Assembly (NCBI GenBank): GCA_017499595.2
Contig: CM038998.1
Coordinates: forward strand, 2,294,001 to 2,358,000
DNA length: 64,000 bases
From: Psilocybe cubensis
Taxonomy: Eukaryota
Direction: 5' to 3'
Within the stretch, counting starts at the first letter, position 1, and each line of letters starts with the position of its first letter. The position numbers and the translations under genes were made by a program. Shown in pieces: positions 1,020-17,812 of this stretch. A model generated the notes under the pieces. The model worked only from the letters and a program-made list of their open reading frames with translations. It searched no databases and was not told the origin of the DNA.

Positions 1020-2848
1020 ATGGCTGCTCCAAACGCAGTAGACGATTCTTCAATACCACCCGAAAACTGGGGTCCTCAAGATGACCAGTCCACAGGGCCT
1101 GCGGGCAACAGCCAATCCGCTACTGGAACATCTCTTCCTGTTGACGACCGTAGTACTGGCCAGGATCCTGAAAATTCAGATTATCCTCGTGGCTCCAGTG
1201 TACCCGACAATGAAACATTCCGTGAAAAGCAGGTCAAGGTGCTTAGGTCATTTCTGTCTGTCATTTGCTCGCTCGTTAGGAGCTCTTTTCTGGGTTTAGC
1301 ATTCTAATGCTGGGCTGCGACGCTCTCGAGCTTCTTACATTCTTGATGCCTTGCGTTGTTCTTTTGGAGGCTATTCTACTGCGTGCTATGAATACTTCTT
1401 TTGATTCCGTGTTCTGGACTGGTGTTTACTTTCTGCTGCGCAGCCGAACAAAGTCTACATTGGTGGTCTCCCTGAAAATACTCGTCAAGAAGATTTGCAA
1501 GGGTGCTTTGGGAAAATTGGGAACATCGTCAATATTGAACTGAAGTATGTGCTTCTTATTTCATTCGATCGTTCATGCTTAATTCGATGACAGAGTTGGT
1601 TATGGCTTTGTGGTGCGTGCATTCAAGATAGATAGCTCAACTTGATACTAACTTTTGTAAAGGAGTTTGACAGTAGAGAAGCTGCCGAAGAAAGTGTCGC
1701 CAAGTATAACGATGGGTTTTTTATGGGCAACCGAGTCCGTGTTGAGTTGTCACATGGAGGTGGTCGAACTGCTAAGTTCGCTGGAGATCCAGGAGCCTGT
1801 TTTAAGTGTGGCAATATGGGACACTGGGCAAGGTGTGGGATTAGTTCAATTACTCATCACTTTAACTCGGTTTTTCATGTTTAATATTTCCCAGAGAATG
1901 TCCAAATAACTTGGGACCGTAAGTAGTAGCGACTTTGCAACTTGTTTACTACCAACACCCTATTCCCAGTGTACATCGGAGGGCCAACTATGAGCCACCT
2001 CTCATAGATCGCATCCAAAGAGATTACAACTCAAACCCTCGAAATATCCACCCTCGCGATGATTTCACACAGCAGCGAATGCCACCTCGAGATGGTCGAT
2101 TTGATTATCCACCCCCGCCCAATGCGATGAGAGACCACCGCAGGCCGCCATCTCCTCGAGAATATCGAGACTATGGTCCTCCTCTCCCCCCGAATCCTCG
2201 TCCGCGTGACTATGATGATTTTCGTAGGGGACCTCCTGTCGATGACAGGGATAGATTTCCACCGCCTCCAGACTTTCGTGGAAGATATCCATCTGCATCA
2301 GACCCACCATATCGCGGCTATGGCCCACCCGTTAATTCTTATGATCGTTACGATAGAAGGCCCAATGACAGGTATACACCTTACTCTCAGCAAATAGGCC
2401 AAAGACCTAGGACTCCACCAAGGGTCAGAGACGAGTACGATCGTTTAGCTCCGCGGTAAAAAACTACGCCTCTTCTAAATGTTGCATTTTCTGAACTCGT
2501 TAACAGTGATTATCCTGAATACCGTGGCCGTCCTGCCACCCCGCCACGTTATCCTCCTGATTATAATCGCTTGAATGGCAATTCGCCAACCGTGCGATAT
2601 GGGTTAGTTTTTTTTTTCAATAGCTGCAGACAACGCAAAGTTGATTTTCTCTACCCAGCTCTAGGCGACGTTCAGCAAGTCCTCCTCGAACTAGTGGCCC
2701 CCCTCCTTATGACGCTTACTCCGTCAATGGTTATATGCCAGGCCCTATTGCCCCTCCTGTTGCTCCCCCTCCTCGCGGTAATAGGGACTACCCTCCACGT
2801 AACGGTCGAGACATGATTGAACCTGTTGGCGCTTACAGACGGCCCTAA
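1020..2848 (+). CDS. SR-like RNA-binding protein (RRM + CCHC zinc knuckle + R/D/P/Y-rich tail; SRSF7/9G8-like architecture)
   Basis: Spliced RNP2 KVYIGGL and RNP1 K|VGYGFV|EF; RVRVELS; zinc knuckle CFKCGNMGHWARECP; low-complexity RDY/RPP tail; stop TAA at 2846-2848. Confidence 0.85.
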
Positions 2849-3130
2849 TTGATCCATCCCTATTATAATTTCTTTGCTGTCTTGAAAAATTTCATTATCC
2901 CTCTAAAAGCGGTCTTCGGACTTGATATCACCAAAATCTACGTGACGTCTGTGTATCTCAATTCTACTGTTAATTTCGTCCATGACTTTGGTGTTATACA
3001 ATGTGACTTATGAATGTCAATTGCTATTAATTACTATTAGGCCAAGATCCATTAACGTATCAGAGATTAACTGGGCTGTCCGGTATAGTACTAGTAACTA
3101 GATGAGCAAGCAGTACCATGATTGACCTGC

Positions 3131-15317: not shown

Positions 15318-17316
15318 ATGAGCGCACACGATAATGAAGACCTTATTGACTACGAGGAAGATCATGATGTTCCAAATGTTGGAACAACAGGAGCTTCCAA
15401 CGGTGGAGTGGCGACGGGCACCAGTGAGGCTGAAGGAAAGGACAAGAAAAACTTTTCTGGCATTCATTCGACTGGTTTCCGGTCAGATTTTAACGCATAT
15501 ATGAGCCTGCTTAATCATTGATACCACCTCTTTGCCACGTAGAGATTTCCTTCTCAAACCTGAGTTGTTGCGCGCCATTAGCGACCTTGGCTTTGAGCAT
15601 CCTTCTGAAGGTATTCTCCACGTTGCCTATCCGAACGTAAATAATGTAACCTTTGAATTAGTGCAGCAAGAGTGTATTCCCCAAGCCGTTTTGGGCATGG
15701 ACGTGCTTTGCCAAGCAAAGTCTGGTCACGGCAAGACAGCTGTCTTTGTCCTGGCCACTTTGCAGCAACTAGAACCCGTAAATGGTGAAGTTTCCGTCAT
15801 GGTACTCTGCCATACCCGGGAGCTTGCATTCCAAATAAAAAACGAATACACGCGCTTCGCCAAGTACATGCCCGATGTGCGCGTCAGCACATTCTATGGC
15901 GGTACCCCTGTACAAAAGGATGCCGACATTCTGCGCGACAAGTCGAAATGCCCTCATATCGTCGTCGCTACTCCTGGTCGCCTGAACGCCCTAACTAGGG
16001 AGAAGTACCTCGACGCAAAAAACGTGAAACATTTTGTTTTGGATGAGTGCGATAAAATGCTCGAACAGCTTGGTTAGTCTTGCGAATTTGGCGCTCACAC
16101 CATCATTTCTATTCAATCCCTACCGCATATCCTTGTTTTGGGCGTCACTGGCGTCCAATAATGTGGTTTGTCGTATTTCCCTTCCGAAACACGCTCGGCA
16201 GGGCATGGCTGGAACATTTCGAAGTCCCGAGCATTGGATTGCCCTTCTCGATGCCCGATTACCAAATCCAAGGGTTACTATCCGGGTTACGTGCAAGCGA
16301 CTGTTCAATTTGCTTTTGTTCTTCGTGTCGCATCTTTACTTTTATGCCGCATATTTCATCCAACCTGCTTCTAATTTCCGACGTCGTCCATTAAATAGAC
16401 ATGCGCCGCGATGTTCAAGAAATTTTTCGAACGACGCCCCATCACAAGCAGGTCATGATGTTCAGCGCAACGTTGGCGAAGGATATAAGGGCGACATGCA
16501 AGAAATTTATGGCAAATGTAAGTCTGTGCCGATCTTTTCTGACAAACTCTCAAATTGTTTTCAGCCATTGGAGATATTTGTAGACGATGAAACCAAGTTG
16601 ACCCTTCACGGTCTCCAACAACATTATGTCAAACTTGAAGAAGTTGGAAAAAACAGGAAACTTAACGAACTCCTTGATTCCCTCGAATTCAATCAGGTGG
16701 ATTCCATCTCTAGGTTGTGATGTTTTTATTGACAAGTTCCAGGTCGTTATATTCGTTAAATCTGTCGCCCGTGCCATTGAACTCGACAAATTGCTGGTCT
16801 CTTGCAACTTTCCTAGTATTAGTATTCACTCTGGGCTTCAACAAGAAGAGCGGTTTGTTATTTCTACCTTTTGAAAACATTTAACATTGATAATTTTATT
16901 GGATAGTATTAACCGATATACTGCTTTTAAGGCCTTTGAAAAGCGCATTTTGGTTGCTACTGATATTTTTGGACGTGGTATTGATGTTGAGCGTGTCAAC
17001 ATTGTCATCAATTATGATTGTCCTCCTGATGCTGACAGTTACCTCCACCGTGTTGGGTATGGAATGCAGTTTCTACCGAAAATATTTCACTTACTTTCAT
17101 ACACAGGCGTGCTGGACGTTTTGGCACGAAAGGGCTTGCAATCACCTTTGTTTCTTCTGAAAGTGACCAGCAAGTTATGTCAGCGATTCAGTCGCGCTTC
17201 GAGGTCGCTGTCCCTGAGCTACCTGATCACATTGATCCCGCAAGCTACAGTACGTTCTTATGGCTACCTATAACCAATTCTCATATTGATTACACATTAA
17301 CCTAGTGACATCTTAA
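15318..17316 (+). CDS. SUB2: DECD-box ATP-dependent RNA helicase SUB2/UAP56
   Basis: [66 protein letters not shown]; 8 introns. Confidence 0.97.
16073..16398 (+). other. Unusually long (326 nt) intron of SUB2 between LEQL and DMRRD
   Basis: Donor G|GTTAGT at 16073, branch-like CTAAT at ~16371, acceptor AATAG at 16398. Removing it restores [13 protein letters not shown]. Confidence 0.9.
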
Positions 17317-17812
17317 ATATGCGACGCTTTGTATTTTTGCCTTTGCCGGTCTTCTTTACTCGCACCTGTGATTGTTCTGCCAAGAAGCCTACAACACAGT
17401 GTCCCGTTGTCGTGCTTTTCTAATTATGCAGAATACTTTTGAGCCCCTGTAGTTCATTTTGGCTTCAATATTCGAAATCGATTTATTTGTATAGTTTATC
17501 GCAGTCATCGGGCAAAGTTATGACACTGAGGGATTCAATATTCAAGTTTTGCTAACATGTATCTTGGTGACGTCAGAATTGACCATACATTTTTCTTTAA
17601 TGACATGCACGTGATGTATCTTATCCTCTTGGCTCATAAACCAAAGGTCATCCCGAGTTGGGATGAATAACACCATATCCTCTATTGTCCTTAAACTCTC
17701 ATCTATCATAGCTGTTGTTTGGTGGTAGCCATACATAGCTTCTGGTTAGAAACGTTTCCGTCATTGGAAGTTTCAAGACTTTTGCTTAGCGTTCTTCACA
17801 GATCGGCGACTA

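Follow-up and report, generated by a model that had tools for sequence, protein, structure and literature searches.

Intron 3 of the Psilocybe cubensis SUB2 gene: a conserved, selectively retained intron that may gate Sub2 output

The DNA analysed here (the window) is a 64,000-nucleotide (nt) stretch of the Psilocybe cubensis genome (assembly GCA_017499595.2, contig CM038998.1, positions 2,294,001 to 2,358,000 of the forward strand). It contains the gene for SUB2/UAP56, an essential RNA helicase whose third intron is about six times the usual intron length and is selectively left unspliced in part of the transcripts. Intron 3 is interpreted here as a slow-splicing, stop-bearing retained intron selected to gate Sub2 output, a reading to which we would give a probability of roughly 55%. 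Sub2/UAP56 couples splicing with mRNA export and cells need a tightly set dose of it. For fungal SUB2, a literature search returned neither an account of this intron nor one of regulation through introns.

The SUB2 gene model has nine exons and eight GT..AG introns and gives a product of 435 amino acids (aa) with the Pfam domains DEAD and Helicase_C. Exon 3 matches the solved chains of DDX39B, DDX39A and SUB2 with E-values of 1e-63 to 1e-61, as against about 1e-24 for the next DEAD-box proteins. The introns measure, in order, 61, 51, 326, 47, 46, 54, 50 and 56 nt, so that the seven other than intron 3 lie between 46 and 61 nt. An earlier interpretation made from the letters of the window (the sequence-only reading) had singled out the 326-nt intron at 16073-16398 as a length outlier. 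This holds, and the intron is long at the same position in 52 of 55 related loci, so its length is not a matter of chance. Intron 3 begins with GTTAGT, ends with ATAG and restores the frame of the 435-aa DDX39B-family protein when excised; it is an ordinary U2-type GT-AG spliceosomal intron. If it is retained, translation meets an in-frame stop (GGT TAG, 16075-16077) right after the DECD motif, as the sequence-only reading had also predicted. The features of the gene and of the intron are as follows, where X1 and X2 are small runs from the same organism, examined as contigs, and A1 and A2 are alignments, the latter of nine sequences from the nearest clade.

15318..17318, + strand: coding sequence of SUB2/UAP56 (DDX39B-family DEAD-box helicase), from the exon model, translation, cDNA-like joints and PDB and Pfam matches
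16073..16398, + strand: phase-1 intron of 326 nt (intron 3) that separates LEQL from D; contigs of X1 and X2 join across it, and an unspliced form exists as well
16073..16079, + strand: 5' splice site GTTAGTC, placing TAG 16075-16077 in frame if the intron is retained; conserved in orthologues
16080..16115, + strand: 5' block with GCGAATTTGGCGCTC, followed by a pyrimidine-rich stretch; alignments A1 and A2
16138..16158, + strand: local hairpin of 9 bp in the minimum-free-energy fold; variable region, not conserved in A1, no consensus pairs
16185..16197, + strand: mid-intron block, a weak candidate partner of the 3' tail; helix from RNAalifold on the nine closest introns
16221..16232 and 16247..16256 (within 16221..16256), + strand: interior blocks with at least 75% column identity in A2
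16315..16351, + strand: T-rich stretch with a TGCCGC-type block, conserved in A1 and A2
16368..16375, + strand: branch-site region CTTCTAAT, with CTAAT at 16371-16375; ATCTAAT is kept in orthologues
16376..16396, + strand: U-poor, C-rich tail with CCGACGTCGTCC, between the branch site and the 3' splice site; conserved in orthologues
16397..16398, + strand: AG of the 3' splice site; joint in X1 and X2

All eight SUB2 junctions are found as joints at the predicted sites in contigs of X1 and/or X2. As these contigs join all eight exon pairs, they are derived from cDNA; in X3 and X4 the locus is unspliced and DNA-like. The spliced intron 3 joint has a depth of 91.1 in X1 and 206.5 in X2. Beside it, X1 has an unspliced contig (16043-16427) that runs from exon 3 through the intron into exon 4 at a depth of 38, compared with 91-140 for exon contigs, and X2 has one (16043-16365) that starts in exon 3, at a depth of 41.4 compared with 192-206. 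The unspliced share is thus, as a rough figure, 20-40% of exon depth. Intron 3 is the only one of the eight SUB2 introns with an unspliced contig, and the depth bins across the seven short introns reflect exon overlap alone, with no intron cover. Because these short introns are uncovered, genomic DNA contamination is excluded and there is no comparable retention elsewhere in the gene. The unspliced contig of X1 spans both exon junctions and therefore represents pre-mRNA rather than an excised product. The sequence-only reading had also considered an alternative 3' splice site or a poison form. No internal joint of this kind (alternative 3' splice site, poison exon or decoy exon) is present in the X1 and X2 contigs, which can miss rare forms. 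The AG dinucleotides of intron 3 are at 16076, 16200, 16223, 16230, 16271, 16296 and 16397; both AG-free stretches that had been pointed out are real, and the CAG at 16201, if used as a 3' splice site, would indeed lead to the stop TAA 16372.

Orthologous introns were collected by a search of metagenome contigs with the exon-3 peptide, which gave 80 loci (74-96% identity) on which the exon peptides of the window were then placed. At an identity of 85% or more there are 60 loci; exon 4 is lacking in three of them and two (L021 and L047) are fully spliced and transcript-like, which leaves 55. The phase-1 intron at the position of intron 3 is 289-445 nt long in 52 of the 55 (median 338), compared with 46-75 nt (median 52) for the other introns of the same loci (n=290). 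The long introns sort into about 20 sequence clusters, and many lineages are therefore represented. Intron 7 is missing in L024 and L029, both otherwise intron-bearing genomic loci, which points to a lineage-specific intron loss.

Two of the 80 loci provide evidence of retention from other organisms. In L010, four short introns that are present in its genomic relatives L011 and L004 (one of them in an upstream gene) are gone, while the 329-nt intron 3 is kept. The contig L076 belongs to a fungus further removed; it is transcript-like, covers the full length and has intron 3 (355 nt) as its sole intron. The suggestion of a retained intron made by the sequence-only reading is thus borne out in X1, X2, L010 and L076, in all of which intron 3 is selectively unspliced. 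L010 also has an uninterrupted 551-aa open reading frame (13-1665) upstream of SUB2 with its retained intron (1849-3083, same strand); this two-gene contig may reflect read-through from the neighbouring gene or an assembly join.

The ends of intron 3 are conserved in an unusual form. Of 52 unique orthologous introns, 50 start with GTTAGT and two with GTCAGT, and positions +3 to +7 have 1.8-2.0 bits; for the six further introns at these loci, the commonest 5' hexamer accounts for at most 10 of 32-52 sequences. U at +3 mismatches U1 snRNA. Since GTTAGT falls in a phase-1 intron, TAG becomes the second codon of the retained form, and the stop is at codon 2 in 50 of 51 orthologues. The 5' block that follows is 93-100% identical over 27-32 nt to L022, L003, L002 and L017, and about 40 nt of it stay alike across clusters whose intron interiors no longer align. 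At the other end, the branch-site region ATCTAAT keeps a fixed spacing to the 3' splice site in orthologues; we take A 16374 to be the likely branch point, on the fungal consensus CTRAY. The tail has the form CCGACRTCGTCC at a fixed distance from the AG and reaches 1.3 bits per position, as against 0.6 or less in the other introns. In the 17 nt before the final YAG, T is 0.25 and C is 0.40, compared with 0.32-0.41 and 0.20-0.29, respectively, in the six other introns. U2AF/Mud2 binds poorly to tracts with little U. No further copies of the 5' block or of the tail motif beyond chance occur in the window.

This conservation exceeds the neutral expectation. In comparisons with the six nearest loci, identity is 0.68-0.72 for intron 3 (shuffle baseline 0.54-0.60), whereas it is 0.34-0.45 at 4-fold sites of exon 3 and 0.48-0.60 in the cores of short introns (shuffle baseline 0.48-0.54). 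Synonymous sites are saturated in these comparisons, yet the blocks of intron 3 (in the window, 16073-16115, 16221-16232, 16247-16256, 16315-16331, 16338-16351 and 16373-16395) are conserved. The orthologue alignment that the sequence-only reading had called for thus bears out conservation of the long length, the 5' splice site and the terminal sequences, and it indicates that the length, the weak splice signals and the immediate stop of intron 3 are under purifying selection.

Several side observations concern the same sequences. The contigs examined show strain differences from the window at 16119, 16264, 16293 and 16366 in intron 3, none of them inside the conserved blocks; the change at 16366 (T>A) creates a new CAG just 5' of the branch site. 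Further strain differences are at 16556 (intron 4) and at 16928 and 16976 (exon 7). The motif TCATCCTTTAT is conserved about 30-45 nt into intron 3 of L004, L010, L011, L014, L030 and L046, and 16101-16115 of the window is a diverged version of it. It resembles the U12-type 5' splice-site consensus. Basidiomycetes are not known to have the minor spliceosome, and the motif is probably a coincidental pyrimidine-rich element.

The interior of the intron is poor in splicing signals. TAA, TAG and TGA triplets number 322 in the orthologous introns, where dinucleotide shuffles would lead one to expect 522; depletion is strongest for CAG (0.61 of expectation), TGA (0.68) and TAA (0.69), AAG is enriched (1.41), and CTRAY occurs 9 times in 6824 nt of intron interior. 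An open frame (16034..16720, + strand) spans all of intron 3. Among the 55 orthologues, a stop-free frame crosses the entire intron in 15 (1.7 from mononucleotide shuffles) and the intron core in 29 (7.2 from dinucleotide shuffles). A coding reading of intron 3 was rejected, as AAG is in excess and orthologues do not share the same open frame. The depleted triplets look like splice signals, and their scarcity is better explained if cryptic sites of both kinds, 3' splice sites and branch sites, are avoided. The picture that these sequences suggest is of a long signal-free spacer between weak, conserved ends.

The more distant SUB2 loci have a short intron at LEQL/D or none at all, and one long intron elsewhere in the gene, as follows.

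L062 and L063: long intron of 417 nt (L062:2081-2498) at the intron-2 position
L069: long intron of 373 nt (1289-1662) at the intron-2 position, beginning G/GTTAGT with TAG in frame
L068, L070, L072, L073, L075 and L078: long first intron, estimated at 237-418 nt, inside AITDCG/FEHPSE

The tails of these relocated introns are U-poor (T 0.19, C 0.36, A 0.34), whereas T is 0.39 over 17 short introns from these loci; the sample is small. First introns generally tend to be longer. A single long, weak intron in SUB2 of several lineages is consistent with selection for such an intron in this gene, and its three different positions would point to selection for the device rather than for a particular site. 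The LEQL/D intron of L067, L070, L072 and L073 and the long intron of L062/L063 have GCATGA, GCATGT or GCAAGT at their 5' ends, as extrapolated; if the extrapolated boundaries are right, these are GC-AG introns.

The same data may be read without any regulatory use. On this account, which we consider rather improbable, a long intron simply splices less well, conserved ends and a lack of internal signals are what such an intron plainly needs, and retention is a passive by-product. Introns of 100-500 nt in Cryptococcus are spliced less efficiently than those of 40-60 nt (PMC11913375). The scarcity of CAG, TGA and TAA agrees with a simple avoidance of cryptic sites. Shortening has also been tolerated in three lineages (88 nt in L029, 207 nt in L039 and 213 nt in L019), and full length is therefore not indispensable. 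However, a merely tolerated long intron should shrink, yet the 289-445 nt range is kept in nearly all loci across the clusters described above. The signals that are conserved are weak ones (U at +3, a U-poor tail unlike those of the six neighbouring introns) and not strong ones that would help splicing, and SUB2 of other lineages carries one long intron elsewhere, again with a U-poor tail.

Besides the tolerated shortening, the following points tell against selected gating of Sub2 output. Retention could simply follow from length. Three loci (L002, L029 and L076) begin with GTCAGT and so have no immediate stop. The difference in tail composition (Mann-Whitney p ~1e-13) is not corrected for shared ancestry, and interior identity falls to the shuffle baseline in distant clusters, e.g. 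L007, L023, L025 and L050. The RNA label of X1 and X2 is a tool's guess, so that their cDNA nature rests on the splice joints, and contig depth, a single figure per contig, is a poor measure of abundance. Finally, regulation as such is something that we infer, and its sign cannot be read from the sequence.

An element acting at the DNA level (an enhancer, intron-mediated enhancement or an internal promoter), with retention incidental, is unlikely. The interior blocks are conserved past synonymous saturation in the nearest clade and no RNA structure accounts for them, as such an element would lead one to expect. The strongest conservation, however, is at RNA-processing signals of the sense strand (the 5' splice-site heptamer, branch site and tail), the interior has been lost in L029 and L039, and no test result here suggests a promoter.

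The sequence-only reading had described intron 3 as structured, with complementary segments and a cis-acting RNA element for feedback by Sub2. On that view, the segments would form an element to be recognised or unwound by Sub2 or another protein. The segments and the GGGTTAC repeat are present and had been placed correctly, but their complementarity is no more than chance. The intron folds at -71.8 kcal/mol, compared with -74.4 +/- 4.7 for 100 dinucleotide shuffles (z +0.55), 71 of which are at least as stable, and the folding z of 23 representative orthologues averages +0.40 (standard deviation 1.05). RNAalifold finds no consensus pairs over 19 introns, and for the surroundings of the 5' splice site, taken from 29 sequences, it predicts no pairing in which the intron takes part. 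The hairpin at 16138-16158 does appear in the minimum-free-energy fold, but its region is not conserved in orthologues, and the other named hairpins likewise fall in variable sequence. Two results lean slightly the other way. The first is a helix between the mid-intron block (16185-16197) and the tail (16379-16390), predicted by RNAalifold from the nine closest introns (11 bp, -1.2 kcal/mol), 8 of whose 11 pairs form in the window. Over 19 introns, 78.3% of its cells pair, compared with 75.0% in shuffles (5 of 500 reach the observed value) and 21-53% when the strands are slid, and 5 pairs have changed on both sides, compared with 3.0 +/- 0.9 in shuffles (29 of 500). This excess is within the range attainable by related unconstrained sequences, and L039 is without the mid block. 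The second is that duplexes of the tail with upstream sequence have a mean energy z of -0.62, with p <= 0.05 in 9 of 55 loci. A hairpin between the tail (GACRTCG) and exon 4 (CGAYGT) was rejected, being broken by A.C mismatches in L017, L022, L012, L013 and L008. A structured regulatory RNA is thus very unlikely.

That intron 3 hosts a small nucleolar RNA (snoRNA) or another small intron-derived RNA is the least probable explanation: the intron is long enough and its interior is partly conserved, and human DDX39B hosts two orphan C/D snoRNAs, SNORD84 and SNORD117 (PMC4696412), but no Rfam match was found at E <= 10 in the window region or at E <= 1 in the introns of 12 orthologous loci, there are no C/D boxes in the intron of the window and no consensus hairpin, and the unspliced contig that covers both exon junctions is pre-mRNA. 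The absence of C/D boxes agrees with the sequence-only reading, and the Rfam search that it proposed gave no snoRNA signal in the fungal intron. Its statement that human DDX39B has an orphan snoRNA in an intron at the LEQL/D position is half right: the human gene does host such RNAs. Among the 55 orthologous introns, two have a C box and one has C and D boxes in order; a crude H..ACA pattern occurs in 28 and is uninformative.

Intron 3 most likely serves to control Sub2 output after transcription, by way of unproductive retention. This control could work as follows. Selection would keep the intron long and weakly signalled, giving slow but accurate splicing. The retained form would be unproductive, whether through nonsense-mediated decay, nuclear hold or translation to a fragment of about 215 aa, and because of this the ratio of spliced to retained RNA would set Sub2 output. 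That ratio may depend on Sub2 itself or else on the overall capacity for splicing and export. By analogy, we infer that Sub2 may feed back on its own intron 3; such sensitivity is suggested by the human paralogues and by the role of the helicase at the branch-site step (Sub2/UAP56 acts at the branch-site and U2AF step; PMC11585973). A positive feedback, such as has been proposed for the human gene, is conceivable, and so is a negative one in which unspliced RNA is exported, as happens with YRA1. If this model is true, a conserved slow intron with a built-in stop shows how fungi set the dose of Sub2, and the natural variants (introns of 88 and 207-213 nt, GTCAGT introns without the stop and relocated long introns) are ready mutants for the study of helicase dependence.

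SUB2 intron 3 probably belongs to a known class of regulated, stop-bearing retained introns in RNA-processing genes, as it is retained above its neighbours, carries a premature stop and is conserved. It differs from the snoRNA-bearing introns of human DDX39B, which belong to the same host family, in having no snoRNA boxes, Rfam match or conserved hairpin.

The intron of YRA1 has a non-consensus branch point. In S. cerevisiae, YRA1 regulates itself by inefficient splicing: Yra1 inhibits the splicing of the pre-mRNA that encodes it, and this RNA is exported unspliced and degraded (PMC11585973). YRA1 encodes a TREX partner of Sub2 and in both genes a slow intron gates output, or would do so in SUB2; binding of the protein to its own intron and Edc3-dependent decay are features specific to YRA1. 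The fungal srp2 gene (orthologue of SRSF5) has a notably long retained intron with in-frame stops that has resisted pressure to shorten, and its sensitivity to nonsense-mediated decay was demonstrated in Neurospora (PMC4379411). SUB2 resembles srp2 as a fungal RNA-processing gene with one notably long, retained, stop-bearing intron. It is a different gene, however, and conserves the splice-site heptamer, 5' block and tail of its intron, whereas for Aspergillus the sequence of the srp2 intron has been described as showing no notable conservation (PMC4379411). Sensitivity to nonsense-mediated decay is a feature of Neurospora srp2 and would be one of several possible fates of the retained SUB2 form.

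The closest parallel in the same gene family is intron 6 of human DDX39B and DDX39A. Depletion of DDX39B increases retention of DDX39B intron 6, depletion of DDX39A does the same for DDX39A intron 6, and overexpression of the matching protein rescues splicing; positive feedback was suggested by the authors (PMC11317157). Human introns that depend on DDX39B, its own intron 6 included, have U-poor, C-rich pyrimidine tracts (PMC11317157). The fungal intron shares with these the gene family, retention in the helicase's own transcript and the U-poor, C-rich tail. Dependence on the level of the protein has been shown for the human introns and is a prediction for the fungal one. DDX39B intron 6 is highly retained and is reported to act by means of a decoy exon, which has splice sites inside the intron (PMC6097662). 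SF3B1 intron 4 is of the same decoy-exon type. Fungal intron 3, without internal joints in the X1 and X2 contigs and depleted in CAG, TGA, TAA and CTRAY, does not have the make-up of such an intron. The LEQL/D junction corresponds to human residues 205/206 in the alignment of exon 3 to the human structure chain. Self-control of Sub2/UAP56 through one weak retained intron might be ancient and under recurrent selection, with the fungal intron a functional, and perhaps positional, counterpart of DDX39A/B intron 6, an idea that we put forward tentatively and regard as doubtful. Control of Sub2 dose by a conserved slow intron in fungi would extend to another kingdom the mechanism recently described for human DDX39A and DDX39B, and if the position matches that of the human intron, SUB2 would be, along with SRSF5/srp2, one of the few genes in which unproductive splicing is conserved across kingdoms.

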